Positions 4,154 through 18,088 of a stretch of 45,036 nt of DNA are shown piece after piece. The DNA comes from a virus. Taxonomy: Duplodnaviria; Caudoviricetes. The notes under the pieces were generated by a model, which made no database searches, was not told where the DNA came from, and saw only the letters and a list, made by a program, of their open reading frames with translations. Location of the stretch: positions 1 to 45,036 of IMG/VR virus record IMGVR_UViG_3300032221_000187; one strand, 5' to 3'. Position 1 is the first letter of the stretch; the number at the start of each line of letters is the position of its first letter. Made by a program: the position numbers and the translations under genes.

Positions 4154-5236
4154 TCATAACGCGCGATAATACTCCGCCAAAAAGTTCAACGCATCGCGGT
4201 GCTCGGAGCGGTAACTGGCGGTGTTGTAAATTGAATTTAATTGAGAAAATGCGTGTGTATGCCCAAGGACAACTTCAATAATGTGTGGGGGCGTTTTGGC
4301 GCGACCAAGGATCGTCGCCGCCGTTCTGCGCAAATCATGCCGCGTCCAGTTCGTGACGCCAGAGCGCGCGTCGAGCTTGGCTTGATACTGCGTCCAGTAT
4401 TTATACCACGGTAACCCGGTCGCACGGTGCCGCCGGATGACCTCCACAGCGTCGTCAGAGAGCGGCACAACAAGCGTCTCCCCATTCTTGCGACGGTGTC
4501 CCGGTATCGTCCACAGGCGGGCAGGGAGATCAAACTCCGCATCTGTTGATCCGCACACCTCGTTTAACCGTGTCACGGTCAGTAGCAGCAGCCGGATTGC
4601 GTCATCGTAGGGCGTACTCTCAAGGTGGGCGAAAACTTTTCTGAGCTCGTCATCGCTGAGTGTCCGATCCCGCGCCGGATTATGCGCCCCACGCGGCTGC
4701 TCCAACTCCTGCGCATCCAGATTTACCAGCTGACGTTTGCTGGCCCACTTCAGGACGGGTCTAAAATAACGCACCGCCGCCCCAGCGTTGGTGTGCGACG
4801 GGTGCCGATCAACGATGTGCTGCAAGTCTGTAACCGTGACACGGTGTAACGGTGCGACCTTGAGAGGCGCAAATATATGCTCGATTGTTTTACGACACCG
4901 CGCCCACGACTTCGGCACCGCGCCAGCTTCTTCATACGTGTTTAGGAGACTCAGGAGCGTGGTCTCACGGTCTGGAGCATATGGGGTAGTACGGATGGCC
5001 CTGGCGCGCTCACGGGCTTCGCTAAGGCTGATTTGAGGGTACGGGCCTATATCCACCCGCTGACGCTTGCGGGCGGGCCCCAGCGCCGCTACCAATGACC
5101 AACGCGCCGATGTCGTGGCTGCACGGAACTCCAAACCCGGCGCAGCCCCGTCACGGATATACACGCGTCGCTGTCGGGCCTCCTTCACAGCCTGACGCAA
5201 CTGCGCGTCTGTCAGGGGCGGAATTATCTTGGGCAA
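4154..5236 (-). CDS. int: Tyrosine integrase with N-terminal arm-binding domain (P4-like)
   Basis: Arm domain RDGAAPGLEFR...IGPYPQISLSEARERA. Catalytic R (LTVTRLNE), K (RKNG), HDLR, LGH and Y (IYN). TTG start with GGGAGG Shine-Dalgarno. Confidence 0.92.
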   Translation of the reverse strand: MPKIIPPLTDAQLRQAVKEARQRRVYIRDGAAPGLEFRAATTSARWSLVAALGPARKRQRVDIGPYPQISLSEARERARAIRTTPYAPDRETTLLSLLNTYEEAGAVPKSWARCRKTIEHIFAPLKVAPLHRVTVTDLQHIVDRHPSHTNAGAAVRYFRPVLKWASKRQLVNLDAQELEQPRGAHNPARDRTLSDDELRKVFAHLESTPYDDAIRLLLLTVTRLNEVCGSTDAEFDLPARLWTIPGHRRKNGETLVVPLSDDAVEVIRRHRATGLPWYKYWTQYQAKLDARSGVTNWTRHDLRRTAATILGRAKTPPHIIEVVLGHTHAFSQLNSIYNTASYRSEHRDALNFLAEYYRAL

Positions 5237-5387
5237 CCGTGTACCTCCCGTGGACTATAACATCGTCGCTGGCTAGTAGAGCACACGGGCAAGTTTGTTA
5301 CAATACTGTTACACTTCATTGTTTTTTCTGGGATTTTTTTCCCAGTTCGACGCCCCCCAGGGGGCTTACCGCTTCCAGGGAGGAAGT

Positions 5388-5405
5388 GTTACTCCCGCAG
5401 GTAAC
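5388..5405. promoter_or_regulatory. Operator-like site GTTACTCCCGCAGGTAAC upstream of integrase
   Basis: One perfect and one partial half-site of the 18-bp family. Intergenic. Confidence 0.55.
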
Positions 5406-5432
5406 TTTTTGTTTTCGTTAATTTTATTATAA

Positions 5433-6065
5433 TTACGCCAGAGCCTGGGGTGTTCCTGGGGTGTTTAACGCAATCAAGCCGGGGTGCTTATTAACCTTAC
5501 CCCCGGGCCCAATGGTTCTTAGAATTTCTACGGTCACTTTTGTGAAACCCTTTTTCCTATACTTGGCCAGCCGCATTGCTAGGCTGTCTAACTCAACGCC
5601 AAGTAGATCCGCAGCTTCTCGATATGTGACCGTGTCACCGTTGTAAGTTATTTCGGTAGCTCTGACGGCTTTACTCGGGGGTTCTACTGACGCGGATATT
5701 TTTTCTGTGTTCAGCACGGTATATTTGACGCCAGCATTAGCAATCATTCGCTCGATATATTGCCGCTCTTTAGCCAAGCGTTCGCCCTTGGTAGCGTCAG
5801 GCATTTCTTCAACAACACTGAACTCCCAATCGGCCAGATCCGTTTGGGGGAGCGTTTCACGCAGTGTTTTAGATTTGGCGGGTGCTGACCCGGTAATGGC
5901 TGGACGCCATGAATGAAACCGGCCTTGGAGATTTGCAGTTTCTCCCAAATACAAAAATCCAGCTTTTGAATTTTTTAGGAGATAGATGCCACCACATAAT
6001 GGGGGGAGGGTAAATTTGTATGTGCTCATGGGAGTAATATATTGGAAGGGGGGTGTATTAGTCAA
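5433..6065 (-). CDS. GIY-YIG endonuclease (free-standing homing-endonuclease type) with C-terminal HTH
   Basis: GIY-x10-YLG, downstream R (QGRF), E (AKERQYI) and N (VLN). C-terminal ITYNGDTVTYREAADLLGV DNA-binding module. Start uncertain. Confidence 0.8.
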   Translation of the reverse strand: MTNTPPFQYITPMSTYKFTLPPLCGGIYLLKNSKAGFLYLGETANLQGRFHSWRPAITGSAPAKSKTLRETLPQTDLADWEFSVVEEMPDATKGERLAKERQYIERMIANAGVKYTVLNTEKISASVEPPSKAVRATEITYNGDTVTYREAADLLGVELDSLAMRLAKYRKKGFTKVTVEILRTIGPGGKVNKHPGLIALNTPGTPQALA

Positions 6066-6069
6066 TAAA

Positions 6070-6087
6070 ATTATCTACGCAGGTAAC
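6070..6087. promoter_or_regulatory. Operator-like site ATTATCTACGCAGGTAAC
   Basis: Near-consensus copy just upstream of the GIY-YIG gene, followed by further GTTAC half-sites. Confidence 0.5.
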
Positions 6088-6154
6088 CGTGTTACCGTTC
6101 TGTTACAGACTGAAAATTTACAAAATATATTAGAACCACGTGAAACGTATTTAG

Positions 6155-6275
6155 GGCTGGGCCCCCGGGTCGCCAGTAGGGGCGGGGGTGCACGTGCACA
6201 CGCGCGCACGCGCTACGCACACACGCGGTAAAAACTACACGCGCACGATTAAATACTCACACATGCACACGTTGG
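6155..6275. other. GC-rich/CACGCG low-complexity tract at the transcription divergence point; candidate genome end or packaging site
   Basis: GGGCCCCCGGG...GGGGCGGGGGTGCACGTGCACACGCGCGCACGCG...CACACACGCG. Genes run leftward on one side and rightward on the other. Function inferred only. Confidence 0.35.
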
Positions 6276-6354
6276 CAGCGAAGCTGCCCAAATCCTCGAA
6301 ACTTGGGCATCGGATCGACGGTCGGTCTGGTCACACCAAACAAGAGGTATCATC

Positions 6355-6525
6355 ATGTTACATTTTCAAAAAGCGTTCCTTGAGGACTTGTTCTTGGACG
6401 GTCTGAACATGGATAGCGCCTTAGCCGAAATCGGCGCAGAAAATGGTGAACAGTGGCACGATGCGGTGTTCACATGGTCAAGATGGCAGCGCGAATTAGA
6501 CAACTGGGGTTTCTATTCATACTGA
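6355..6525 (+). CDS. Small acidic early protein (56 aa)
   Basis: MLHFQKAFLEDLFLDGLNMDSALAEIGAENGEQWHDAVFTWSRWQRELDNWGFYSY with GAGGT Shine-Dalgarno. Confidence 0.55.
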   Translation: MLHFQKAFLEDLFLDGLNMDSALAEIGAENGEQWHDAVFTWSRWQRELDNWGFYSY

Positions 6526-6539
6526 GAATTTATAGGGCG

Positions 6540-6557
6540 GTTACCTGTCGGGTTAAC
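6540..6557. promoter_or_regulatory. Operator-like site GTTACCTGTCGGGTTAAC
   Basis: 18-bp family member. Intergenic, flanked by GGCG/CGCC. Confidence 0.6.
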
Positions 6558-6669
6558 CGCCTCAATAAATCCTCGAAACTTGGACGAAGACAATGGTTGA
6601 GCTTGCACAATTAATCACTGGTTCAATCACTGTCGGTTTCATATGGCTTTTACTGTCGGGAGAATAATC

Positions 6670-7035
6670 ATGTCCTACCATTTGGCGGTGCTCGCTCATC
6701 TTGAGCGGCGTATGAAATATGCTGCTATGCAGCCAAAGATTAATCATGTCCCAGGTCAGGGTCTATGGCCTCGAGAGGACATGCGGATAACTTGTAAAAA
6801 TTACAACCCTAAACCTCTGACGGTTAAACGTGACACGGTTAAACGGTCGCAAGTTATCGCCAAGGTTAAATCCTCGGCCATTGTATCGTCAGCAAAGTTC
6901 AAGCGACCTTTGCGGGTTGAGATTGTCAAACGGGAACACGTTTTCAACGACGCTGAGAAGGCGTCGGTTAACGCAACCTATGTCGCAATGATGGATAGTT
7001 TACAGTCAGCACAGAAAAAGAGGTTATGGCTATGA
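6670..7035 (+). CDS. Hypothetical basic early protein
   Basis: ORF 6643..7035. ATG at 6670 preferred (GGAG upstream). Confidence 0.5.
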   Translation: MSYHLAVLAHLERRMKYAAMQPKINHVPGQGLWPREDMRITCKNYNPKPLTVKRDTVKRSQVIAKVKSSAIVSSAKFKRPLRVEIVKREHVFNDAEKASVNATYVAMMDSLQSAQKKRLWL

Positions 7036-7244
7036 ACACATGGAATGCACATGTCTTTAGACCGTCCGACCGTGACGTGAAATTTATACAAAAACCTCAC
7101 GGCATATTTGGCAGGTATAACCAACCGCCCGTTGGATGGTCTGACCGTGACACGGTAGACCGTATGCTCAAAACCCGTGGCCTCACATTGGAGGACGCAT
7201 GGTCTATGACTTCACAAAAATCCTCGGCGTTTACCACGAGGTGA
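7032..7244 (+). CDS. Hypothetical protein
   Basis: ATGA overlap with the previous gene, GAGG upstream. Confidence 0.5.
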   Translation: MNTWNAHVFRPSDRDVKFIQKPHGIFGRYNQPPVGWSDRDTVDRMLKTRGLTLEDAWSMTSQKSSAFTTR

Positions 7245-7394
7245 TTGCCGATAACATCGGGTGGTGGCTGGCGCTCTATGTGTAGCGTCGTCATCACCCA
7301 ACCTTAAACCTACTATGTCGCGTTTGACGGTGGCACGTGTCACGGTCTGACGGTGGCTATCGGGAGGCGACGCAGCCCCGTATCGCTCACTGTT

Positions 7395-7860
7395 TGTAAG
7401 TGCTTGTTTTTGTTATATCTTAATACATTCTTTTTACAATATATATATATATCAATAACTTATAACTATAATGTATAATGTATATCGTATATTAACATAC
7501 ACACCCCACGCGCGACCCCCCTCACCCGTGTGACCTTGGGCGCGTGTCACGGTCACACCATTAAACCCTCCAAGGGTAGGGTGTGTGTATTTTTTTCCAA
7601 ATACATTATACATTATGCTATATTCTTTATTAAATTCAAACACTTAAAATGTATCTGTGACAGTTTTATGACAAAAAACATTATCCAATATTATCACCCA
7701 AAACACTGGCTTTCGGTGCGCTTTATAGACGGTTTACAATTATATATATGTCAACCGCATATTGCGTATCAATTTCGTAACATGTGAAAAATGACCTCAT
7801 TACTTATGCTCATTAGCGAGCATAACTTAACGCAACTATATCATAACACCTGAAAAGTGA
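7395..7860. other. Strongly AT-rich non-coding region; candidate replication origin/early promoter region
   Basis: TA runs (7439-7452) and A/T tracts interrupted by a GC island at 7500-7590. Flanked by clustered ACGGT motifs. Confidence 0.4.
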
Positions 7861-7884
7861 CCTTTAAACAAAATGGAGGGCGTC

Positions 7885-8034
7885 ATGCTGATACCGATAG
7901 TGGGTGGATTGTGGGCTGTGACCATGCTGATTGAGCTATGGCGCATTGATAATGGCGGCTACGTCATGCTCGGCGCGCTAGTTTTATTCGTCGCCTACCT
8001 GCTTTTCACCCCTGCCACTAGGGAGCGCAGCTAA
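7885..8034 (+). CDS. Small two-helix membrane protein (49 aa)
   Basis: MLIPIVGGLWAVTMLIELWRIDNGGYVMLGALVLFVAYLLFTPATRERS. GGAGG Shine-Dalgarno and TAATG coupling to the next gene. Confidence 0.55.
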   Translation: MLIPIVGGLWAVTMLIELWRIDNGGYVMLGALVLFVAYLLFTPATRERS

Positions 8035-8234
8035 TGGATGAGGACTTTGAACTACGTTCTATAAATCACCACCTTTACCGGCTGTATTATGTGTGGGTCG
8101 CTGACCAAGGGTTAGATGAGGACATCCACGTCGAGGACTTAATAAATCTGCCAACGCTGACCAGCGCGCAAAAGGCGTGGCTAGTGTCATGGCTGAAAGC
8201 AGATGAGGCGATCACCCGTCTAGGGTGTGTATAA
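8034..8234 (+). CDS. Hypothetical protein
   Basis: 66-aa ORF with GGAG upstream. Confidence 0.55.
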   Translation: MDEDFELRSINHHLYRLYYVWVADQGLDEDIHVEDLINLPTLTSAQKAWLVSWLKADEAITRLGCV

Positions 8235-8253
8235 ATCCTCACAACTTATGAGT

Positions 8254-8271
8254 GTTACCTGCCAAGCTAAC
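8254..8271. promoter_or_regulatory. Operator-like site GTTACCTGCCAAGCTAAC
   Basis: Consensus copy directly before an AAGGAG ribosome-binding site. Confidence 0.7.
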
Positions 8272-8283
8272 CAAGGAGTAGTC

Positions 8284-8391
8284 ATGTCGAGAGCACAAGC
8301 GCATACCATTATATTTGTATACGACGCCTTCTTTGCTTTCCTATTGGGGACAGCAATCATGTGGGTGGCATGTGAATGGGGGTGGCTATGA
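8284..8391 (+). CDS. Small hydrophobic peptide (35 aa)
   Basis: MSRAQAHTIIFVYDAFFAFLLGTAIMWVACEWGWL. AAGGAG Shine-Dalgarno and ATGA overlap with the next ORF. Confidence 0.45.
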   Translation: MSRAQAHTIIFVYDAFFAFLLGTAIMWVACEWGWL

Positions 8392-8627
8392 CAATGTTAC
8401 AGCTAATCTGCCAGCAATGCGTGGCGCGTATCGCTAACCTTAAGGTCAAGGGCAAAAAGACCCGTGACACATTATCCTTTGAGTTCATGGTCGGGGCGGC
8501 GACGGGGTTAGTGCAATCTAATCATCCCGAAGCGCAGCATGTCGTCAATGTAGTGGCGGCGATTATTTCGGTGCGTGGCTATCCTGAGATTGAGCGTATT
8601 GCGACCATGCAAGACGTAGCAGCGTAA
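8388..8627 (+). CDS. Hypothetical protein
   Basis: ORF 8376..8627, start at 8388 preferred from the ATGA overlap. Confidence 0.55.
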   Translation: MTMLQLICQQCVARIANLKVKGKKTRDTLSFEFMVGAATGLVQSNHPEAQHVVNVVAAIISVRGYPEIERIATMQDVAA

Positions 8628-8646
8628 CATACTAAGCCGCGTGTCG

Positions 8647-8664
8647 GTTACCTATGCAGCTAAC
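8647..8664. promoter_or_regulatory. Operator-like site GTTACCTATGCAGCTAAC
   Basis: Consensus copy 15 bp upstream of the 550-aa gene start. Confidence 0.7.
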
Positions 8665-8678
8665 TTAAGAGGCTAATC

Positions 8679-10331
8679 ATGTTTCAGCTTGTCAATTTGA
8701 CTACGGGTGAGTTCCTCACTCGTAAAAACGGTCACACGTTTACACTCGACGATGGCCGCAAGGCATCCCGAGCAGCGCGCCTCTTAACCAAACCGGGGGG
8801 CGTCAAGTATCAGCCGCGTAAAGTAGCGCCTGTCGTTGACCTCTCATGGCGTCAGCGTGAGCAGGATCGCTTTAATAGTGGTGAGTATCTGCCACTGTGT
8901 GCTGACTTGGCGTTCCATGCCAAGCTGGCTAAACCGTTGCACTATGCACATACGGCCAAGCGCAAGCCCACACTTATTGCCTACACTAAAGATGATGAGC
9001 GTGGCGCAGCCGATAAACAGTCAGTGATGACGATTGAAGCCTATATTGAACTGATAGCGCAAGAACACTGGTCGACGCAGTTAAAGACTGCGCTTGCTAA
9101 AAGACAGCTAGAATATGCAACCGCAGCATACAAGCCATTCTTGTTGGCGACGGATGCTGACGATATTGTTAGTGTATATACTAACTACGATGAGGACAGT
9201 GAGAGTGTATCTAAATCATGTATGCGCTTCGAGGAAGATGACAGCACATGGTCAAAAGTTGACGGTAAACGGTATCACCCTTGCCGTGTGTATGCTGCTG
9301 GCGATCTCGCTGTTGCTTATCTGACAAATGATGACGGTTACACGGTTGCACGTGCCCTTGTCTGGCCCGAGCGTAAACTATTCAGCCGTGTCTATGATAG
9401 CTCTGGCAGGTTAACGCCATTACTTAAACATGCAGGTTATACGCCGAGTTATTACCACGACAGTAGCAACACGTCATTCAGAGGCGCGAAGTTACTCAAA
9501 ATAATTACTGACGACGACAAAATTGTTGCGCCTTATCTCGATGAGGTGGGCTACGTAGATATACTCGACGACGGCCTTGTTATTGGTGGTCAATATCCTG
9601 CGCGTAGCACTGATGGTGTGCTTGAGCGTGACAACATTACATCTGACCACGATTGGATATGTGAGCACTGTGAGGAGGGCTTTTCTGAGGGTGACTATTC
9701 ATACGAGGTCTATACCCGTGGCAATCAAACACGGTCGCAGACATGGTGTGAACATTGCCGTATGGATAGTGCGTTCTACTGCGAAGGCACTACTGAATAT
9801 TACAGCGACGCACATGTCGAGTGCCGCACTATAGATAACATGTCGTATTGCGGCGCATATGCCGACGAACATGCGCAATACTGTGACCTCAACGAGGAAT
9901 ATACTTTTGAGGAAACCGAAGAAGTTATCATCAAGGTCGATGATGACGGCGAAGAGCATACAGAAAGTTGGAGCGAGGGCGCACGTGAAGAGTATGCCTA
10001 CCTCGGGTGGGATAGCCGTTGGTATCACAAGGATATTGAGTGCGTCACAGTCATTAGTGAGCGGTATCTTCCACTTACACGGTCACGCACAACTCGTAGT
10101 CCAGATGGCGTGTATCCCTATTACACCAGCTTTGTGGAGATTGCTTGGTATTACGACCGCAAGCAAAAGATACCACAATACATGATCGATAATGGCAGCG
10201 CACGTGTCGTCGAGGCTGATGGCGTCAGTTACCTGTCGGGCTATCGTGATTACTATCCAGTGTGGCGTCCGCGCTTGGACGTTGGCCCACTGGTTAACAT
10301 AATGGAGGAACCCTACTATGTCGCTGCTTAA
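8679..10331 (+). CDS. Large hypothetical early protein with acidic Cys-rich (CxxC) C-terminal repeats
   Basis: 550 aa. Core SCM...ARALVW...RVY...PYLD, then CEHC...CEHC...YCE and acidic segments. Confidence 0.7.
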   Translation: MFQLVNLTTGEFLTRKNGHTFTLDDGRKASRAARLLTKPGGVKYQPRKVAPVVDLSWRQREQDRFNSGEYLPLCADLAFHAKLAKPLHYAHTAKRKPTLIAYTKDDERGAADKQSVMTIEAYIELIAQEHWSTQLKTALAKRQLEYATAAYKPFLLATDADDIVSVYTNYDEDSESVSKSCMRFEEDDSTWSKVDGKRYHPCRVYAAGDLAVAYLTNDDGYTVARALVWPERKLFSRVYDSSGRLTPLLKHAGYTPSYYHDSSNTSFRGAKLLKIITDDDKIVAPYLDEVGYVDILDDGLVIGGQYPARSTDGVLERDNITSDHDWICEHCEEGFSEGDYSYEVYTRGNQTRSQTWCEHCRMDSAFYCEGTTEYYSDAHVECRTIDNMSYCGAYADEHAQYCDLNEEYTFEETEEVIIKVDDDGEEHTESWSEGAREEYAYLGWDSRWYHKDIECVTVISERYLPLTRSRTTRSPDGVYPYYTSFVEIAWYYDRKQKIPQYMIDNGSARVVEADGVSYLSGYRDYYPVWRPRLDVGPLVNIMEEPYYVAA

Positions 10332-11301
10332 GTTTCAGCCCAAACATGCAGCGCGTGAACTGCATGAAATTCTCACGGTCAAACGGCCACACGGTAGCGC
10401 GTCGGAACATAAGTTCATCAAGCGTTACATTGATACATTGCCCGGCGTCACCGCTGATGGCTATGGCAACCGTCGTGTTGTTGTAGGTGGCGCAAAAGCT
10501 CCTGCAATAATGTGGTCGTGTCACACTGACACTGTGCATAACTCACACGGCACACAGACCATCATACGTGATGGCGACATGATACGGTTACACGGTAAGG
10601 AGCGCGCAAATTGTTTAGGCGCTGATGATGGCACTGGCGTGTGGCTCATGCGTCAAATGATTATGCGTGGCATACCCGGCCATTATGTGTTTCACCGTGG
10701 TGAAGAATGTGGTGGGCTTGGTTCAAGCTGGATTGCGTCGCATGACATACAATTCCTTACGCAGTTTCAATGCGCCATTGCCCTTGATCGCAAGGGTTAT
10801 AGCAGCGTCATAACGCATCAAGGGTCACGATGTGCAAGTGACTTATTTGCACAATCATTAGCAGATCAGTTGCCGACGAGCTTCAAGCCTGACGCGACGG
10901 GTGTGTTCACTGATACTGCAAACTATATCGACTTTATTCCTGAGTGCACGAACCTATCGGTTGGATATGGCGCGCAGCATTGCAAGAATGAGGCGCAGAA
11001 TGTTCCGTTCGCTATGAAATTACTTGAGGCGTTGTGCGATTTAAATCCTCGGGACTTGTCTATCGTTCGTGACCCTAAAGAGATTGATATTGGTTATTGG
11101 GGCACACGTTATACTGATTACTACAAGGATGATTGGTATGGCTCGGAATTTTGGGATGAAGTCAAGGCGCGTGGTTCGAGCAACTACGACAAACTCTTCG
11201 ATATTGTCAAAGATAATCCCAGCGTCATTGCGGATTATCTCGACCATATGGGCGTGGATGCTGACTTGTTCGAGGAACACCTCGGCATCTACGACAACTA
11301 A
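10318..11301 (+). CDS. Zn-dependent peptidase/amidohydrolase, M20/M28 family
   Basis: HTDTV, LGADDGTG, GEECGGLGS, LDRKG, TD and distal H (GYGAQH) metal-ligand motifs. Confidence 0.8.
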   Translation: MSLLKFQPKHAARELHEILTVKRPHGSASEHKFIKRYIDTLPGVTADGYGNRRVVVGGAKAPAIMWSCHTDTVHNSHGTQTIIRDGDMIRLHGKERANCLGADDGTGVWLMRQMIMRGIPGHYVFHRGEECGGLGSSWIASHDIQFLTQFQCAIALDRKGYSSVITHQGSRCASDLFAQSLADQLPTSFKPDATGVFTDTANYIDFIPECTNLSVGYGAQHCKNEAQNVPFAMKLLEALCDLNPRDLSIVRDPKEIDIGYWGTRYTDYYKDDWYGSEFWDEVKARGSSNYDKLFDIVKDNPSVIADYLDHMGVDADLFEEHLGIYDN

Positions 11302-11331
11302 GCCGCATATCAACGACTACTGGAGGTGGTG

Positions 11332-11532
11332 ATGCCAACATATAAAATCGTGAGAATGTATTTAGCAGCAGAACATGACATTGAAGTAATCGAGACGGGA
11401 CTAACACTACACGAAGCAAAGCAGCATTGCTGTGACAGAGAAACATCGTCACGAACCTGCACATTACCTGACCTTATTAAGTTAACCGCAGAGCGTGGCC
11501 CGTGGTTCGATGGGTTTGAGGAGGAACGCTGA
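11332..11532 (+). CDS. Hypothetical protein
   Basis: GGAGGT Shine-Dalgarno; TGLTLHEAKQHC...WFDGFEE. Confidence 0.6.
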   Translation: MPTYKIVRMYLAAEHDIEVIETGLTLHEAKQHCCDRETSSRTCTLPDLIKLTAERGPWFDGFEEER

Positions 11533-11948
11533 TGGCTAATTATTACACAGAATTTTCCGTCGAGCTTGATGTGCTCACTAAAGAAAATGTCGAGCGAGTT
11601 TATAAAATGTGGAGTGAACCCGCTAACCAAGACATGGAAGAGATATGTTGTGGATTTGACTTAAAGCCGGATAGCTCAACGAAGCTCTGGATCAATAGTG
11701 GCGACGAAGGCGGCGATGTCGACAGCCTTTGTTCGTTCATTAAACTGATTTGTTCTGAAATATTACTAACAGGAATATGGGGGTTTGAGTGGGCCAACAC
11801 ATGCTCGGGAAAACGCCTCGATGCGTTTGGCGGCGGCGCTGTGTTGTTTAACCTAAAGACCGGCGACCAGATTGACCATGTCAATACAAGTCAATGGCTG
11901 GCAAACGCCATGTATCATGCAAACGAGTTTAATGAGGTGACACCGTGA
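11532..11948 (+). CDS. Hypothetical protein
   Basis: 138 aa, translationally coupled; WGFEWANTCS...DAFGGGA. Confidence 0.65.
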   Translation: MANYYTEFSVELDVLTKENVERVYKMWSEPANQDMEEICCGFDLKPDSSTKLWINSGDEGGDVDSLCSFIKLICSEILLTGIWGFEWANTCSGKRLDAFGGGAVLFNLKTGDQIDHVNTSQWLANAMYHANEFNEVTP

Positions 11949-12199
11949 CACTATGCTTTGGAGGATGTCGTAACGCTAACGAGTTCTATGTCGATTACGA
12001 CGTAAACACCAAAGACTTTAACCGATACTACGTGCTCTCTTTTGATAGAGAGAAACGCTGGTGGTATGCCTTTGAGCGCGTAGCCAAGAGTGATGACGCT
12101 TGGTTTGATACGGAAGAAATAAATCTAACAAAAGAACAACTAGCCGCAATGCTAGAGGTAATGCCAGTAAGCGCGTTACCTGTGGAGGTATTTATATGA
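11945..12199 (+). CDS. Hypothetical protein
   Basis: GTGA overlap and GAGGT Shine-Dalgarno. Confidence 0.55.
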   Translation: MTLCFGGCRNANEFYVDYDVNTKDFNRYYVLSFDREKRWWYAFERVAKSDDAWFDTEEINLTKEQLAAMLEVMPVSALPVEVFI

Positions 12200-12558
12200 G
12201 CACAGATATAGAAATACGCATACACATTGAACGCAAGATAGTACGCGCCGTTGTCACGGAAGCAATAGCTAACGGTTACACGGTCACACATAATGACGGC
12301 GTAAACAATACAGTAACAGTAAGCGCGCCGTTAGATATTGGCCTGCTTATGGATCAGCTACATGCAACGGATGAGGAGTATCTGATTATCAATCACGCCG
12401 ATGGCAAGCGCGCCGGGTCTGTCATGCTTGTTTATGGCAACGATGGATATGACGTGATCGCAGATCACACGGCGTCACCGCTTATGGATAAGATCATTAA
12501 ACCTGCCGACATCATGGCGCGTAAGATGGAGGTCGATAGTTACGTGGGGGGAAAATGA
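12196..12558 (+). CDS. Hypothetical protein
   Basis: GGAGGT Shine-Dalgarno; LVYGNDGYDVIADH motif. Confidence 0.65.
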   Translation: MSTDIEIRIHIERKIVRAVVTEAIANGYTVTHNDGVNNTVTVSAPLDIGLLMDQLHATDEEYLIINHADGKRAGSVMLVYGNDGYDVIADHTASPLMDKIIKPADIMARKMEVDSYVGGK

Positions 12559-12791
12559 AAGCAGTTACCTTAGCAACTACTATGTCGCTTTTGACGGTGA
12601 CAAGTGCCCACGCGGTAAGCGCCGCAACATGTCGGGCGAGTATGATTGAAGATTGTTACACAGAGATTGAGCAGGTGTGTCGAGGTAAGCCGCCGCTCAT
12701 TATGGATAAGTCCTACTTCAACGGATCACTGTTTATACCTGAGTTGCCTACTGGTTGGTATCAGTGGGTGAAGATTATTTACAACTGCTAG
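12555..12791 (+). CDS. Small exported protein (signal peptide)
   Basis: MKAVTLATTMSLLTVTSAHA followed by a domain with 4 Cys. Confidence 0.55.
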   Translation: MKAVTLATTMSLLTVTSAHAVSAATCRASMIEDCYTEIEQVCRGKPPLIMDKSYFNGSLFIPELPTGWYQWVKIIYNC

Positions 12792-12799
12792 GAGCACAC

Positions 12800-13126
12800 A
12801 TGAAGAAAGTAGTTCTATTCACACTAGCTATGATGGGGAGTGCAAACGCTGTCGAATTTACAAAAGAACAATATAAACATCTGGCCTACATCAACGCGGC
12901 GGAAGTTTATGTCGTGGGTAATAGATGCCCAGGGCTTTACGTAGATTACAATTTAATTCGTGAGCGTAACGCACTGATGACGCCTGAACAGATGAAGCAC
13001 CTGACGACGGTTATATCATCTGACGCGCTGCCGATGTTCTTTAGGGTTGAGGCGAAGGATGGGATCGAGACAGTGTGTAGCATCATCCGTAAAAACAGAA
13101 ACTCAAAGACAATTAAGGGGGACTGA
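12800..13126 (+). CDS. Exported protein (signal peptide)
   Basis: AGGAG Shine-Dalgarno, MKKVVLFTLAMMGSANA, two Cys. Confidence 0.6.
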   Translation: MKKVVLFTLAMMGSANAVEFTKEQYKHLAYINAAEVYVVGNRCPGLYVDYNLIRERNALMTPEQMKHLTTVISSDALPMFFRVEAKDGIETVCSIIRKNRNSKTIKGD

Positions 13127-13380
13127 TGAGCACGCCCTCACACGCTTGGTTAGATGTTTTAATTTGGGTTGTTTGTCTTGGGTTATTTTTTGCTGTCGTT
13201 TATGCGGCGGCTAAAAGCAAAACACCGGGCAGCAGTCTCGCTGAAATCTTATTACTGACAAGCGGGCTTGAAGGGTTAATTGTCTGGGGTATCTGGCAAT
13301 TATTAAAGAAAGCAGACCGATGGCGTGGTGAACTAAACGACGCCGACACAAACAATGAGGAAAGTAATGACAAACGATGA
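13126..13380 (+). CDS. Two-TM membrane protein
   Basis: Two hydrophobic segments and a charged C-terminal tail. Confidence 0.55.
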   Translation: MSTPSHAWLDVLIWVVCLGLFFAVVYAAAKSKTPGSSLAEILLLTSGLEGLIVWGIWQLLKKADRWRGELNDADTNNEESNDKR

Positions 13381-13693
13381 AGCAGTAAATCTCGCGGTTA
13401 TGACAGCCAACATATGGGCCGACACTGACTGCATCGGGCACATGAGTTCACATGAACTTGCTACGCAGCTTATACGGTTACGTAGATTAGCAGCGACGGG
13501 TCGCGCCCTTGAGGTCAAAATCTGTAATGAACCAGTGGATGAGAACGAAGTCGAAGGTAAGCGTGCTCAATATAGATTGCGCGCTCAGAAAATAGCCAAA
13601 AAGCTACAGATCGACATCAAGATCCAGCATGACCCACGGGGTGCATACTTACAGTTGAGTGTGCCCGCCACTGGTGTGGAGTTCAGGATATGA
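13367..13693 (+). CDS. Hypothetical protein
   Basis: ORF 13355..13693; CNEP and HDPRGA motifs. Confidence 0.6.
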   Translation: MTNDEAVNLAVMTANIWADTDCIGHMSSHELATQLIRLRRLAATGRALEVKICNEPVDENEVEGKRAQYRLRAQKIAKKLQIDIKIQHDPRGAYLQLSVPATGVEFRI

Positions 13694-13926
13694 CAGTAAA
13701 AATCCTCGTAGCTTGGATAGCACTAATGACCCCGGCGATAGCGACGGAGTCTTTCAATACATACAAGTCTGGAGACGATAGCTATTCTACCTATGGGTCA
13801 AACGGTCAGGGGTATCAGACCTACGGGACGGGTAACGGGAACTATTCAACATACGGCAGCGACGGCACCAACTGCCAGACGTATTCAGATGGTAACGGTG
13901 GCGCATCTACATATTGCAACAGATAG
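13690..13926 (+). CDS. Small exported Gly/Ser/Thr/Tyr-repeat protein
   Basis: Signal peptide then repeated Y[SQ]TYG[ST][ND]G units. Confidence 0.6.
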   Translation: MTVKILVAWIALMTPAIATESFNTYKSGDDSYSTYGSNGQGYQTYGTGNGNYSTYGSDGTNCQTYSDGNGGASTYCNR

Positions 13927-13935
13927 GGGATTAAA

Positions 13936-14307
13936 ATGGACGCACAGACATTAACTAACGAACTCGCACACTTTACTGGCTCGGAGCAATTTTATCGTTA
14001 CCTGTTCGGGGTAACTTTGACAGAGGGCGCGAAGCATCTAGCAGAGAAGGCCAATGCCTTTTGGCTCATGGATATTATCGCCAGCTACCAGCATGAGCGT
14101 GAGTTTAAGAAGCACGCTGACTTCCAGACGTGGACGCTCAAGCTCGAGGCAGTGGGTGACGGTGAGCAGCCATCGGCCACGGTCACAGCGACGGACGGTG
14201 ACGGTAATGTATTAGCCGAGCAGCACATTGCGATGACGGACTTTCCTCTAAATGAAATCACGTTGTGGTTTGAGGGTGGAACTATTCTCTTACCGAGTGA
14301 GCACTGA
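13936..14307 (+). CDS. Conserved hypothetical protein (DUF6876-like)
   Basis: LAHFTGSEQFYR...TEGAKHLAE...FWLMDIIASYQ...TDFPL...ILLPSEH. Family recognised from memory. Confidence 0.6.
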   Translation: MDAQTLTNELAHFTGSEQFYRYLFGVTLTEGAKHLAEKANAFWLMDIIASYQHEREFKKHADFQTWTLKLEAVGDGEQPSATVTATDGDGNVLAEQHIAMTDFPLNEITLWFEGGTILLPSEH

Positions 14308-14308
14308 C

Positions 14309-14539
14309 ATGACAGTTACTAAGCCGCATTTGTTTCGCAAAGTTGGCGACAACATCATGACCGACCCTAAAGCCGTGGCGATGTATTACGCGGAAGACAA
14401 TCTGCTTGTCGTCTTAGATTGGTGGTGGGATGCGCAGCCCTCGCACATACAGAGTGTTGTGTGGAAATCGGCTGAACCTGTCATGTATCGGGCAGACTTT
14501 TATGGGACTACAGCGCCAGAATTTCGCTGGCGAGGTTAG
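14309..14539 (+). CDS. Hypothetical protein
   Basis: ORF 14252..14539, start at 14309 or later. Confidence 0.45.
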   Translation: MTVTKPHLFRKVGDNIMTDPKAVAMYYAEDNLLVVLDWWWDAQPSHIQSVVWKSAEPVMYRADFYGTTAPEFRWRG

Positions 14540-14552
14540 CTGCAAAGGTAAC
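14535..14552. promoter_or_regulatory. Operator-like site GTTAGCTGCAAAGGTAAC upstream of the RAMP operon
   Basis: Consensus copy of the 18-bp palindrome family. Confidence 0.7.
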
Positions 14553-14564
14553 GTGAGGCGCGGC

Positions 14565-14601
14565 CAGCACATTACGGTGTGCTGTGCGGGCAATCACGCC
14601 C
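14565..14601 (+). promoter_or_regulatory. Leader double hairpin structurally matching the array repeat
   Basis: CAGCAC-ATTACGGT-GTGCTG, 3 nt, GGGC-AATCAC-GCCC. Same ATTACGGT cap and 3-nt linker as the array repeat. Confidence 0.6.
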
Positions 14602-14619
14602 ATGTAGTAGAGGACTTTT

Positions 14620-15267
14620 ATGGCTATTCATTCACTGGATTTTCGATTGGTAGGAACATCACCGCTTCTTCTTAATAACCCGCAGACGGTTGACGCATTA
14701 TCAGCCGCGTCGATTGCGATTAAGGAGTTGAGCGGTAAGCGTAAGCGCACTGAAACCGAAGACATGGAACTTCGTAAGAAGAAATTCATGGCGGGTTTGT
14801 ATCTGACAAGTGATGGTGCGCCATATATCCCCGCTTACAACATCCAGCGTTCCGCCCAGGAAGCTGGCCGCTTATCTAAGCAGGGTAAGATTTGGGATCG
14901 TGGTGTATGGCTCACTGAGCATCAGTGTTTGCTAGATTACAAAGGCCCAAAGACAGCCGAGGGTTTGTGGGAGGACAAACGGTTTGTCGATAATCGTGAC
15001 GGTAAAGTTGGTAACGGCGCACGTATTGTCGTGACCCGCCCAATCTTTCACCAGTGGTCAGCCGACGTTAGCTTTAATTTTGAAGACGAGATTGCAAACC
15101 CAGGCGACATTGTCGCTCACTTGTTCCACGCCGGTAAGATGATTGGCGTTGGCACATATCGTCAGCGATTTGGTCGCTTTGATATTGAGGTATTGGGTGG
15201 CTCGGTTGACGTATCCAAATACACAAAAAACTTAGGCATTATTAATCACGTTAAGAAAGCTGCATAA
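14620..15267 (+). CDS. Stand-alone Cas7/RAMP-like RNA-binding protein (putative effector of the adjacent pentamer array)
   Basis: RAMP hallmarks in order: beta1 FRLVGTSPLLL; YIPAYNIQRSAQEA (compare Cas7 .IPGSSLKG.LR); hairpin ending VTRPIF; WSADVSFNF; C-terminal Gly-rich loop AGKMIGVGTYRQRFGRFDI. No other cas genes nearby. Confidence 0.75.
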   Translation: MAIHSLDFRLVGTSPLLLNNPQTVDALSAASIAIKELSGKRKRTETEDMELRKKKFMAGLYLTSDGAPYIPAYNIQRSAQEAGRLSKQGKIWDRGVWLTEHQCLLDYKGPKTAEGLWEDKRFVDNRDGKVGNGARIVVTRPIFHQWSADVSFNFEDEIANPGDIVAHLFHAGKMIGVGTYRQRFGRFDIEVLGGSVDVSKYTKNLGIINHVKKAA

Positions 15268-15268
15268 C

Positions 15269-15817
15269 ATGACAGACATTACAGATATGATTGACGACGA
15301 ATGGCCCTCAAACAATCCACCTGACCCGGTGGATGTTGACCATATACAGGTAGCGGTCGATAAGTTTCTTGCCAGCAATTTTGCTGACGGGCAGCTTATC
15401 ACGCACGCTTGGCTGCATGAGGCGCTCGGTATCCCCGAAGCGCCTGGCAGTATGCCGAAAGAACAGGCGCAGCCCTTGCAGTTCAGATATATGTCTGCGG
15501 TGGGTAAAGTTAGGGACATCTTGTTAGAGGAGCACTCCATCGCGCTGCGCAGCGTGCATGGTGACGGTTATTCTATTGTCCCGCCTGCCGAGCAGCCTGC
15601 ATGGGCCAAGAGGGGGCTGAACAAGGATTTGAACAAAGCGTTCATTCTCGCGTCAAGCCGCGCCACGTTTGTAAGGACTGACGGACTTACTGACGCACAA
15701 AAGAATGAGATGACGGCTGTTCAGGCTGGCATCAGTACCATGAAGTCCCACCTCTCTGCGGCTAGGGCCAAGGAGAAACGTGGTAACTTTTGGGATGTGA
15801 ATTCATCCGCTCAATAG
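15269..15817 (+). CDS. Accessory protein of the RAMP/array locus, wHTH-like N-domain plus helical C-domain
   Basis: Starts 1 nt after the RAMP stop and ends 8 nt before the array. ITHAWLHEALG...VGKVRDILLEEHSIALRSVHGDGYSIV resembles a helix plus wing. Confidence 0.6.
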   Translation: MTDITDMIDDEWPSNNPPDPVDVDHIQVAVDKFLASNFADGQLITHAWLHEALGIPEAPGSMPKEQAQPLQFRYMSAVGKVRDILLEEHSIALRSVHGDGYSIVPPAEQPAWAKRGLNKDLNKAFILASSRATFVRTDGLTDAQKNEMTAVQAGISTMKSHLSAARAKEKRGNFWDVNSSAQ

Positions 15818-15825
15818 AGGGTGTT

Positions 15826-16286
15826 TGCGTAGCGAAGCGCAGCGTAGCAAGGTTAAGCGAAGTCTAGCAAAGCTAAGCATAGCGCAGCAAAGAAGTCTTA
15901 CGACCTCTGCCGATTACGGTCGGCAGTAGCCGTTAGATGATAACGGAATTAGCCAAGTATAGCTAAGCGGAGCCTGGTTTAGCATAGCGTAGCCTTGTTT
16001 AGCAAAGCTAAGCATAGCGCAGCAAAGAAGTCTTACGACCTCTGCCGATTACGGTCGGCAGTAGCCGTTAGATGATAACGGAAACAGTATAGTATAGTGA
16101 TGTTTTGCGAAGCGCAGCGCAGCAAGGTCAAGCGAAGTTTAGCCGAGTTGAGCATAGCAAAGAAGTCTTACGACCTCTGCCGATTACGGTCGGCAGCAGC
16201 CGTTAGATGATAACGGATGGAGCCAAGCATAAGCCGAGCCTAGCATAGCAAAGCGGAGCATTGCCCTGCCCAGTAAAGCACAGCAG
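15826..16286 (+). ncRNA. Putative guide-RNA array: four (DGY-NN)n pentamer tracts separated by three 57-nt structured repeats
   Basis: Tracts 15826-15890 (13 units), 15951-16025 (15), 16086-16160 (15), 16221-16286 (13 plus one extra A). All 56 constant triplets are DGY: 39 AGC, 8 AGT, 4 TGC, 3 GGT, 2 TGT. Strand assumed from the operon. Confidence 0.8.
15891..16217 (+). repeat. 57-bp direct repeat x3 (15891-15947, 16026-16082, 16161-16217), period 135 bp
   Basis: AGAAGTCTTACGACCTCTGCCGATTACGGTCGGCAG(T/C)AGCCGTTAGATGATAACGGA, one substitution at 16197. Hairpins CTGCCGAT-TACG-GTCGGCAG and CCGTTA-GATGA-TAACGG. Confidence 0.95.
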
Positions 16287-16403
16287 AGGATTACTCAAAT
16301 GGAGTTCAAATGCAAAATTATAGATCAATGTATCGCCGCCGCACATTTCGACAGCAGCTAATGCTACGTGTATCTTATGATACACTTCGACGACTTATCA
16401 GTT

Positions 16404-16496
16404 AGCCTGACGGGCACTTCACCCCCAGCGGGAGATGCAGCAACCGGGGAGCGTGCGAGGCGCTACAAGGGTAAAGTTCGGGTATTCCGTCAGGCT
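16404..16496 (+). ncRNA. Candidate structured RNA
   Basis: Perfect 10-bp closing stem AGCCTGACGG/CCGTCAGGCT, inner stem ACTT-C-ACCC/GGGT-A-AAGT, hairpin AGCGT-GCGAG-GCGCT. Intergenic. Confidence 0.4.
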
Positions 16497-16572
16497 TATG
16501 GTTAGACATGGCCCGTGAAACTTACCAAACTGCATCAACTATCTTTCACTACTAAGCCAGGATGTAAACCTT

Positions 16573-16776
16573 ATGGATGGCCTAAATCGCACGGTGTCAC
16601 TCTCAGAAGCAGACGCCGTGACTATTGTAACCGCGTTATCAGTATTAGTAAGCGTATCAGAGTCTATCATAGCAGAAACAAATGATTACCCGCCGGAAGT
16701 CGTAAATGACTCACAACGTGGGAAAATCCTTCTACAAAGTTTCTGTGAAAAGTTTGGAATTGAATGTGAACATTGA
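16573..16776 (+). CDS. Hypothetical protein
   Basis: 67-aa ORF in operon orientation. Confidence 0.5.
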   Translation: MDGLNRTVSLSEADAVTIVTALSVLVSVSESIIAETNDYPPEVVNDSQRGKILLQSFCEKFGIECEH

Positions 16777-16805
16777 CTGATAGGTAAAACACGCAGGTTG
16801 ACCAA

Positions 16806-16823
16806 CTTAGCCATAAAGGTAAC
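16806..16823. promoter_or_regulatory. Operator-like site CTTAGCCATAAAGGTAAC
   Basis: Near-consensus and intergenic. Confidence 0.5.
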
Positions 16824-16846
16824 ATCTCCGTATCAGGAGAGTTACA

Positions 16847-17299
16847 ATGCTAGATTTAACCGCACTTAATAGCCCTAAAGCGTTCGGCCAGGTGGTCGGC
16901 ATGACGGATAGGGCAATGGCCCGCTTGGGATTATGGGCGTGCCAGCAAGCAGCCGATGGCTCTCAAGGCTTTGACGACGCTGTAGATATACTACAGGACT
17001 TCAACGAAGCCCGCCGCAAATCATCCGGCGACCCGCGTATTCAGATCGTTCCTCATAAAGTGCAGGTCTCTAAACTGGGGAGATTGTTACTCGCCGGGGA
17101 AACCTTTGGGGATGCCGCAGTCTCTATGCTAGAGGCTTTCTCTGAGCTTCATATGAAGAAGTTCATTCTTATGCCTTACGGCACTGGCGTCACCTATAAT
17201 GGTGAATATAATGGCATGGTCGAGGTCGCCCGCGAGGCCCTGCGCCGTGGCAAAGTTATTACCAGAAAAGAAATTACGGAATTAGTCACAGTTCAATAA
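16847..17299 (+). CDS. Hypothetical protein
   Basis: 150 aa with AGGAG Shine-Dalgarno. Confidence 0.65.
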   Translation: MLDLTALNSPKAFGQVVGMTDRAMARLGLWACQQAADGSQGFDDAVDILQDFNEARRKSSGDPRIQIVPHKVQVSKLGRLLLAGETFGDAAVSMLEAFSELHMKKFILMPYGTGVTYNGEYNGMVEVAREALRRGKVITRKEITELVTVQ

Positions 17300-17348
17300 C
17301 ACTTTGTTATTTACAAGTGACAAAAGTGTTGCTATCTGTCCCCCATTA

Positions 17349-17366
17349 GTTAGCTGGACAGGTAAC
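17349..17366. promoter_or_regulatory. Operator-like site GTTAGCTGGACAGGTAAC
   Basis: Consensus copy 5 bp before the start codon at 17372. Preceded by the inverted repeat AACACTTTGT...ACAAAAGTGTT. Confidence 0.7.
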
Positions 17367-17371
17367 AATCA

Positions 17372-17830
17372 ATGCAACATGATCCAAAAGATATATTAAA
17401 AATAGCATCAGAAACAATTACTGAACGCGGCGTAGCATACGGCGGGTTTGAGCAGTCATTCACACTTGCTGCACAAATGGCGTCATTAAGACTATTACGC
17501 GAAGTTCATCCATATGAAATCATTGTTGGTTTGATCGCCGTCAAAAACGCGCGGTCAGCATATAATGCCGACCACTTTGACAGTCATCTCGATGCCATTA
17601 ACTACGAAGCATTTCTGCCGATGTTTGCAGATGACTACGCTGCAAAAGTAAAAGGTCAGCCAGTTGGTGAACGCGTTGCACCGGCACCGCCTGTCCCGAT
17701 TGCGCCAATGGCCCCACAAAATAAACCAGCGTTCAAGATACCGAAGCCACCAAGAGAGGCAATGCTGGCCGATAGGTTAGCGCAAGCTGCGTCGGGAATT
17801 GAGGAACAAATGCACCTCCTTGAAGAATAA
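17372..17830 (+). CDS. DUF6378-like protein (all-alpha NTP-pyrophosphatase-like) with Pro-rich tail
   Basis: ASETITERGVAYG...KNARS...DSHLDAINY pattern. Confidence 0.6.
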   Translation: MQHDPKDILKIASETITERGVAYGGFEQSFTLAAQMASLRLLREVHPYEIIVGLIAVKNARSAYNADHFDSHLDAINYEAFLPMFADDYAAKVKGQPVGERVAPAPPVPIAPMAPQNKPAFKIPKPPREAMLADRLAQAASGIEEQMHLLEE

Positions 17831-17860
17831 GATTACCCGGCGTGCTCCATCGCGCCGTGT

Positions 17861-17906
17861 AAGCCCCTCGCGTCTAGGTCTCCAGTTGGCGCGGGGGGTT
17901 TTTATT
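17861..17906 (+). terminator. Rho-independent terminator
   Basis: GC-rich stem CCCCTCGCGTC/GGCGCGGGGGG followed by TTTTTATT. Confidence 0.65.
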
Positions 17907-17917
17907 AGGAGACACCA

Positions 17918-18088
17918 ATGAAAATAGCGTTCTGTTTATTCCTAATGGGTGTGTGTTTTGCGTGTTTAGTTGAGGGTTTGTGGACGGATCTGTGGCGTAA
18001 GCTCGACGCACACTGGCCACAACACCACGGTCACACGGTCACACGGGTTGACCCTTGGTTCGATGATTTCCTTAATCCGAGGATATAA
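17918..18088 (+). CDS. Small membrane-anchored protein (56 aa)
   Basis: AGGAG Shine-Dalgarno; MKIAFCLFLMGVCFACLVEGLW... ends 1 nt before the polymerase ATG. Confidence 0.5.
   Translation: MKIAFCLFLMGVCFACLVEGLWTDLWRKLDAHWPQHHGHTVTRVDPWFDDFLNPRI

Follow-up and report, generated by a model that had tools for sequence, protein, structure and literature searches.

Introduction

Repeated RNA structures are processed in class 1 CRISPR systems by Cas6, and in type II CRISPR systems by RNase III together with tracrRNA. VIPR systems of phages consist of vipr, an accessory gene, guides made of 5-nt tandem repeats, and structured junctions; their guide tail has been described, and the processing enzyme is unnamed save for hammerheads in some types (bioRxiv 10.64898/2026.04.26.720920). 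The word RNase is absent from the text and supplement text of that preprint. It is also absent from the accessible part of the VIPR structure preprint, and the accessible part of another VIPR preprint has it once, as RNase A. RNase III goes unmentioned in these texts as far as they were accessible, and figures, journal versions and other supplements may show processing.

The early region of phage T7 offers a second point of reference. Its RNase III sites, such as R1.1, which the accessible part of PMC6121014 places between genes 1 and 1.1, and the small substrate uR1.1 (PMC1540722), are intergenic hairpins with an upper stem, an internal loop and a lower stem. Here we compare with both systems the leader of a vipr gene in a phage record of 45,036 nt, the whole of which is called the window below. 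Like the T7 early sites, the leader is predicted to fold into such an intergenic hairpin, with U·G at the distal box and with G-C and A-U at proximal box positions 1 and 2, and its predicted cut lies 32 nt before the start codon, as compared with about 35 and 33 nt for T7 genes 0.3 and 1 by the same cut caller. Unlike the T7 early sites, it is two base pairs shorter under the loop, carries a UACG cap and is richer in G+C; furthermore, its 3' arm is predicted to refold as a 5' cap hairpin, and the same kind of site also occurs between guides. The locus resembles the type II VIPR systems of SUSP1 and P. fulva in having vipr, one accessory gene, and an array of 5-nt units with structured junctions, and resembles that of SUSP1 in having a junction hairpin in the vipr leader. 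It differs from them in that its units are AGY instead of GGY, no pseudoknot-type tail was seen, no guide lies upstream of vipr, and the guides are predicted to bear a 5' hairpin besides the 3' tail. We propose that the leader is probably a site of the T7 early-region type at which host RNase III processes the transcript, and that sites of the same kind separate the guide RNAs of the array. The kind of signal is known; a role for it in VIPR was not found in the texts searched.

Results and Discussion

A Phage VIPR Locus with AGY Guides

The window is a 45-kb phage record with genes for terminase, integrase, DNA polymerase A, helicase, primase and virion proteins. The locus at the leader is a phage VIPR system composed of Vipr, vap, four AGY/NN guide tracts and three repeats, all on the + strand. 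The vipr gene (14620..15267) encodes a 215-aa RAMP of the VIPR family (phrog_4652). A profile of this protein and five homologues matched PDB 36pp, "SUSP1 Vipr protein", with an E value of 3e-34; by BLASTP, it was 29% identical to SUSP1 Vipr (E 2e-28), and its structure model (pLDDT 84) fits Csm3/Cas7 folds. The accessory gene vap (15269..15817; 182 aa; phrog_5926) has a homologue after vipr in the loci L034 and L044 and in Pseudomonas phage Medea1. Close relatives were also found as proteins (P0003, 73%; P0004, 56%), and a near-identical record (L012/L093) starts within the array.

Guide tract 1 (15831..15890) begins 14 nt past the vap stop and shows the 5-nt AGY/NN period. It is followed by repeat 1 (15895..15946), which consists of the hairpins P1 (15895-15904) and P2 (15907-15926), a linker, and the hairpin P3 (15930-15946). 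The periodic tracts 2 (15951..16025) and 3 (16086..16160) are followed by repeats 2 (16030..16081) and 3 (16165..16216), each again with P1, P2 and P3, and no repeat stands after tract 4 (16222..16286). The three repeats are spaced 135 nt apart, and their predicted cuts, called as described below, are at 15929/15930, 16064/16065 and 16199/16200. Each tract has 9-14 matching units, in most of which two variable bases follow AGC or AGT (trimers AGC 37, AGT 8, GGT 3). The guide unit is thus non-GGY and fits the YNNNG class, a unit class mentioned for VIPR (bioRxiv 10.64898/2026.04.26.720920), and not the canonical GGY. Nine units of guide 3 were searched against viral contigs for a target read by the NN code with a 1-nt skip, and none of the 8 matches extended beyond these units (2-4 of 12 further bases agreed). 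In addition, the best matches of the guides to their own genome were 16/24, 19/30, 20/30 and 15/22, without a shuffled control, and none of them was at the leader.

Structure of the vipr Leader

The leader occupies an 80-nt gap inside a long run of co-oriented genes. Its upper stem, P2 (14565..14584, + strand), has 8 bp when A-U and U·G pairs are counted, a UACG loop, and U·G at the distal-box position. A 3-nt linker (14585..14587, +) leads to the second hairpin, P3 (14588..14601, +; 4 bp), and 18 nt lie between this element and the ATG at 14620, with a Shine-Dalgarno-like GAGGA at 14610..14614 (+). A preliminary description had presented the element as a copy of the hairpins of the array repeat. 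Its coordinates and sequence, the three compensatory pair changes, the linker, the distance to the ATG and the ATTACGGT cap shared with the repeats were all as it had given them. Its 6-bp stems are indeed fully paired with three changed pairs; the true first stem is, however, 8 bp long. Likewise, the loop that it had called UNCG-type is present but closed by U·G, rather than by C-G as in the canonical cUNCGg tetraloop. ATTACGGT occurs four times in the window, in the leader and in the three repeats. When the window minus the array was dinucleotide-shuffled, the cap with six further pairs arose anywhere in 1 of 300 shuffles, and any 8-bp stem on a TACG loop in 35 of 300.

We next consider the fold that includes the flanks. 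The long precursor fold (14552..14598, +), a predicted RNase III substrate, is made of the upper stem, a 2x2 internal loop and a lower stem in which 14552-14562 pairs, with interruptions, with 14587-14598; it has 17 predicted pairs with the lower stem included. This fold is both the minimum free energy and the centroid structure (−28.1 kcal/mol, z −2.59). In the real context, one long hairpin (14552-14598) was favoured over the split fold (−26.7 versus −18.6 kcal/mol). The long hairpin is predicted to be mutually exclusive with P3, whose outer pair has a predicted probability of 0.002 before the RNA is cut. The 3' strand is predicted to be cut at 14587/14588, which leaves 32 nt up to the ATG. 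The first nucleotide of P3 coincides with this cut, and P3 is predicted to form only after it, as the 5'-terminal stem-loop of the cut vipr-vap mRNA. A second cut at 14563/14564 is possible, as judged from the register of uR1.1 (PMC1540722).

A translation switch by unmasking of the ribosome-binding site was also considered. The predicted unpaired probability of the Shine-Dalgarno sequence was 0.35-0.46 after the cut versus 0.50-0.83 before it, so that no gain in accessibility is predicted from the cut, and unmasking is therefore not claimed. A promoter scan gave no consensus promoter near the leader (5 sites in 11.3-17 kb versus 7.4 expected), and no leader variants were found among the DNA contigs compared, only one of which, possibly the source of the window itself, spans the leader. 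Note that the ten bases just upstream of the leader (14539-14548) are identical to the 5' half of the junction tail hairpin of LES phi2, which may be a relic or chance.

Conserved and Variable Positions of the Stem

To see what is fixed in the stem, we aligned the repeats of the window with those of the relatives L034 and L044 (46-47% Vipr identity), which contributed 17 more, giving 19 distinct repeats. The repeats of L034 and L044 have the same layout, namely a small hairpin P1, a stem P2 of 8 bp or more, three bases, and a hairpin P3. In P2, 99.3% of the cells in the alignment were paired and 7 of the 8 pairs showed double changes; the score for pairing and covariation was reached by none of 500 shuffles, in a setting where relatedness inflates such scores. 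The eighth pair was U·G in 18 of the 19 repeats, as it is in the leader and in all three window repeats. The loops differ in sequence and in length (4 to 9 nt), whereas the distance of the U·G from the stem base is constant at 8 bp, the position of the RNase III distal box. Because the loops vary in this way, UACG is not the signal, and the idea that a UNCG loop is what is recognized is not supported.

The P2 of the leader is identical at 16 of 16 positions to a VIPR junction of Medea1, at 12 of 16 to the T7 hairpin preceding gene 1, and at 10 of 16 to the repeat of its own array; over 24 nt, the leader matches the Medea1 junction at 22 positions and the array repeat at 12. By these comparisons, the leader stem is an instance of a widespread motif and not a duplicate of the array repeat. 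Only the first stem matches the repeat (10/16 nt); the second hairpin shares position and no sequence with its counterpart. A covariance model built from the 19 repeats returned the leader as the top non-array match in the window (12.3 bits, E 0.071), with the match confined to the first stem; the next non-array match had 7.2 bits. For the lower stem, pairing over 7 flank types was 49/56 against a permutation mean of 45.4, and 384 of 5040 permutations were as high; its covariation was thus not significant (p about 0.08).

Comparison with RNase III Substrates

Box numbering was inferred from the named variants of uR1.1 (PMC1540722) and the T7 sequence. The cut caller places the 3'-strand cut 11 nt from the start of the G in the U·G pair. 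Applied to T7, it predicted cuts at 890, 3138 and 5887, which we take to agree with the mapped RNase III sites; it missed two of the five T7 early hairpins, because these are without that U·G.

We then compared the window sites with the uR1.1 rules. At distal box position 2, the leader and the window repeats have U·G. The rules further call for U-A at distal position 1 and for 11 bp from cut to loop; the window sites have UACG there and 8 contiguous pairs. The distal U-A is present in all five hairpins of SUSP1 and in all five new junctions described below. Positions 1 and 2 of the proximal box are G-C and A-U in the leader and G-C and U-A in the window repeats, in line with the rules. Six of the 19 aligned repeats, all of them from L034 or L044, have G-C or C-G at proximal position 2, and such a pair at this position is an antideterminant in E. 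coli (PMC1540722). At proximal positions 3 and 4, where A-U followed by A-U or U-A is expected, the leader has C-G and then a mismatch, departures that it shares with the T7 site before gene 1; position 4 is unpaired throughout the clade of the window, L034 and L044. Two helical turns, counting the lower stem, are predicted for the leader but only as a near-equal alternative in the repeats, where the split fold is predicted to lie 1.9 kcal/mol below the long fold. In addition, the four window sites have the tetraloop directly on the U·G, without the two top pairs of uR1.1; in uR1.1, a minimal E. coli substrate without lower stem, deletion of both pairs essentially abolished cleavage (PMC1540722). 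By strict E. coli rules, the leader is not a full member of the RNase III substrates, although it probably acts as one, and these rules may not be those of the host. The pair differences between leader and repeat fit the rules: at proximal position 2, A-U in the leader stands against U-A in the repeat, and the other two changes lie between the boxes. Stable 8-bp stems with U·G number 34 in the window, and 7 of them have both proximal-box features, four of the 7 being the leader and the three repeats.

Occurrence in Other VIPR and Phage Loci

In a test in which position 15 was fixed by a flanking anchor and U·G was not demanded, 17 of the 18 distinct repeats of the clade formed by the window, L034 and L044 had U·G at 15:24, with 0-1 at other positions. 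At the anchored position, U·G was also present in 8 of 9 rows from LES phi2, Medea1 and Achromobacter, in 5 of 6 from two Burkholderiaceae-family loci added once the idea had been formed, and in 8 of the 11 of a third family of junctions. The single misses in the 8/9 and 5/6 sets are a second anchor within an already counted site, and all five U·G rows of the Burkholderiaceae-family loci have the canonical U-A adjoining. By eye, two phiHSIC junctions show the same box. The E. coli phage SUSP1 has one such hairpin ahead of every guide and another in its vipr leader; all five show the canonical UA/UG box and carry A-U at proximal position 2. The guides predicted from them are 105, 121 and 116 nt, and the reported size is "~100 nt" (bioRxiv 10.64898/2026.04.26.720920). 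On the SUSP1 sequence (L082), the predicted 5' ends of guides are at 623, 1888, 2036 and 2179, and the predicted cut of the vipr leader is at 755/756. Since the sites come from few related families, these counts are not independent.

The position of the downstream hairpin was scored as a contiguous stem with 17 start positions permitted. The best downstream hairpin began exactly at the predicted cut at 25 of 28 sites, corresponding to 12 of 15 distinct hairpins; outside the clade of the window, L034 and L044, the figure was 5/8, and in the new junctions 3/5. The head hairpin is absent from the third family (GGAG[CT]).

The leader-like pattern was found in 12 loci, one of which is a VIPR locus (L072). 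In four others the same stem lies 25-35 nt before a Shine-Dalgarno sequence and ATG (L069, L074, L077 and L076); L074 and L077 share one sequence, L077 being shortened, so that these loci represent three distinct phage contexts, in two of which a hairpin begins at the predicted cut. The remaining leader-like loci are without such a context. In 5 fragmentary records with the stem before genes, vipr was not found, and 4 of 4 control records were matched by the same search.

As to whether the leader hairpin recurs in homologous loci, the answer is mixed. SUSP1, wV8 and LES phi2 have a junction hairpin within the vipr leader, with guides upstream of it. In contrast, L034 and L044, the closest relatives with DNA compared, have no hairpin in the leader, and where the window has the hairpin, they carry promoter-like TTGAC...TATAAT/TATA. 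The module is absent from many VIPR loci (the GGA/NN clade L045-L063, actinophages, L056, L079 and L098-L102). A class sample of 400 genomes yielded no new vipr loci, and a family sample yielded 4 new vipr matches, 2 of them weak.

Proposed Processing and Alternative Explanations

We propose the following course of events. Host RNase III would recognize the long leader hairpin by its U·G distal box and cut 3 nt beyond the 8-bp stem, at 14587/14588. The first 14 nt of the downstream RNA would refold into a 5' stem-loop, which would likely slow 5'-end-dependent decay of the vipr-vap message. Like cuts in the three repeats would release guides with a P3 head, an AGY/NN tract, and a tail that would be P1 if both strands are cut or P1-P2 if one strand is cut; for tract 2, the predicted mature RNA is 15930-16040 (111 nt) or 15930-16064 (135 nt), respectively. 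Because the predicted cut falls after the linker, the first hairpin would be the 3' tail, or be excised, and the second hairpin the 5' head, so that the question whether the hairpins are head or tail would be answered by both, divided at the linker. No processing hairpin lies between the vap stop and tract 1 in the window, L034 or L044. Since tract 1 follows vap without such a hairpin, the message itself, ending in tract 1, would on release form the array's first unit, its head and tail being like those of the guides. In L034 and L044, the promoter-like sequence may supply the 5' end in place of the leader site, although this is an after-the-fact reading. The comparison across loci thus supports the earlier suggestion that the leader structure is under selection, is recognized by the factor that also reads the repeats, and defines unit boundaries. 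A more general proposal, which we put forward tentatively and rather doubt as a whole, is that proteobacterial VIPR systems in general have host RNase III as their maturase; a module of tail, stem and head would cut both the guides and the vipr mRNA, the message as first unit could be coated by Vipr and give feedback, and silencing between phages would depend on the host.

An agent encoded by the locus would be a competitor of RNase III. If Vipr or Vap cut or bound at the hairpin base in a Cas6-like manner, the leader copy would couple processing or translation of the mRNA to the level of Vipr; Vipr is a RAMP, the best-fitting sites in this genome are restricted to the VIPR unit, and the E. 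coli length rule is broken here. However, the loop and stem of Cas6 substrates do not vary freely within an array, whereas the loop and most stem pairs vary inside one array here. The stem is also found ahead of genes in phage contigs without detected vipr and is similar to T7 sites, and the contacts of Vipr in the accessible part of the published work are with the GGY tract. We thus regard this explanation as unlikely. The related proposal of the preliminary description, an autoregulatory site read by Vipr, meets the same objection from contigs without detected vipr; moreover, the leader has no guide-type tract, and the best guide-genome match is 20/30. It is also rather improbable that the hairpins stay uncut and serve as stability elements or barriers and that the ends arise by RNase E and exonuclease trimming to Vipr-covered tracts or stable stems; as part of this, there is little likelihood that the leader hairpin merely protects or pauses the message. 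Such a role would suit the preference of the window repeats for the split three-hairpin fold and the U·G beside the tetraloop, which may partly be a stable-cap habit. It would also suit tract 1, which is without a 5'-side hairpin in the window, L034 and L044, so that some end must be made by another route. On the other hand, it explains neither why a wobble pair keeps its distance from the stem base when the loops span 4 to 9 nt, nor why the next hairpin starts at the predicted cut.

Two further explanations appear much less plausible. One holds that the repeat is an undescribed self-cleaving ribozyme and the leader its degenerate copy. The joining bases are invariant in the repeat, and hammerheads occur in other VIPR arrays (bioRxiv 10.64898/2026.04.26.720920, fig. 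S19 legend), but Rfam covariance models gave a single chance match in 14300-16900 (E 3.8), and the invariant flanks are missing from the leader. Furthermore, the flanks are wholly different among junction families, which have the stem geometry alone in common, and a ribozyme is thus very unlikely. The other, for which we see scarcely any chance, regards the leader as what remains, without function, of an upstream guide junction whose guide has been lost. The guides upstream of the leader hairpin in SUSP1, wV8 and LES phi2, and the 10 nt of LES phi2 junction tail at 14539-14548, would agree with this; however, the bases concerned form the lower stem, neither of the two stems is disrupted, and there is no periodic tract upstream of the leader (at most 3 of 4 units). 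For want of such a tract, an upstream guide before the leader was rejected.

The proposed RNase III processing can be set beside that of CRISPR repeats, where similarly one cut of a repeated RNA structure gives the tail of one guide and the head of the next. It would differ from CRISPR in that the duplex forms in cis without tracrRNA, the repeats diverge freely, and the effector mRNA is framed by the same signal. Guide processing in VIPR is unaddressed in the texts searched, and our analysis proposes an enzyme and base-exact ends. If correct, it would provide design rules for multiplex VIPR arrays, and guides of several clades would bear a 5' hairpin in addition to their tail. The type of RNase III site has long been known, which limits the surprise.

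Additional Observations

Several features of VIPR loci were noted in passing. In the loci with AGY guides (window 14620-15267; L034 713-1327; L044 302-919), Vipr has Thr at the position of SUSP1 D177 (G-loop) and Asn at that of H17. In the published structure, as far as its description was accessible, D177 and H17 of SUSP1 Vipr are the two residues reading G1, and the GGY loci with printed motifs retain Asp and His at these positions. The Thr and Asn in the AGY loci are therefore likely to be a specificity switch. Guides 1 and 2 of the window end in five identical units (15866-15890 and 16001-16025), hinting at guide-guide recombination through the repeat. At 16083-16148, a contig from a second run of the same study (depth 3.8) has a diverged 66-nt stretch of equal length; in this one contig, it is a different guide in the guide 3 slot.

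Among actinophages, the VIPR guides of Trine (L038 2570-2880) and LittleE (L084 1220-1470 and 2670-2880) are separated by GGTTCGA loops resembling the T-arm of tRNA, and the vipr leader of LittleE holds a copy of this T-arm-like element, which suggests that these guides may be processed by tRNA-maturing enzymes instead. A VIPR clade with GGA/NN guides (L045-L048, L050-L055, L057, L058 and L063) has junctions of ~24 nt and an array directly after vipr. In phiHSIC (L103 1885-2230), AGC/TGC-type tracts lie between vipr and the next gene together with two canonical distal-box junction hairpins, and the reverse-strand ORF annotated over these tracts is probably spurious.

Elsewhere in the window, a motif resembling CACGGT / GTGACACGG recurs across the early region (4400-18050; families D4, D8, D10 and D14). 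In addition, a 12-nt tandem repeat is present in 8 copies at 31813-31937, within a reverse-strand gene of 2447 aa, where it encodes a linker of the Pro/Glu/Lys type.
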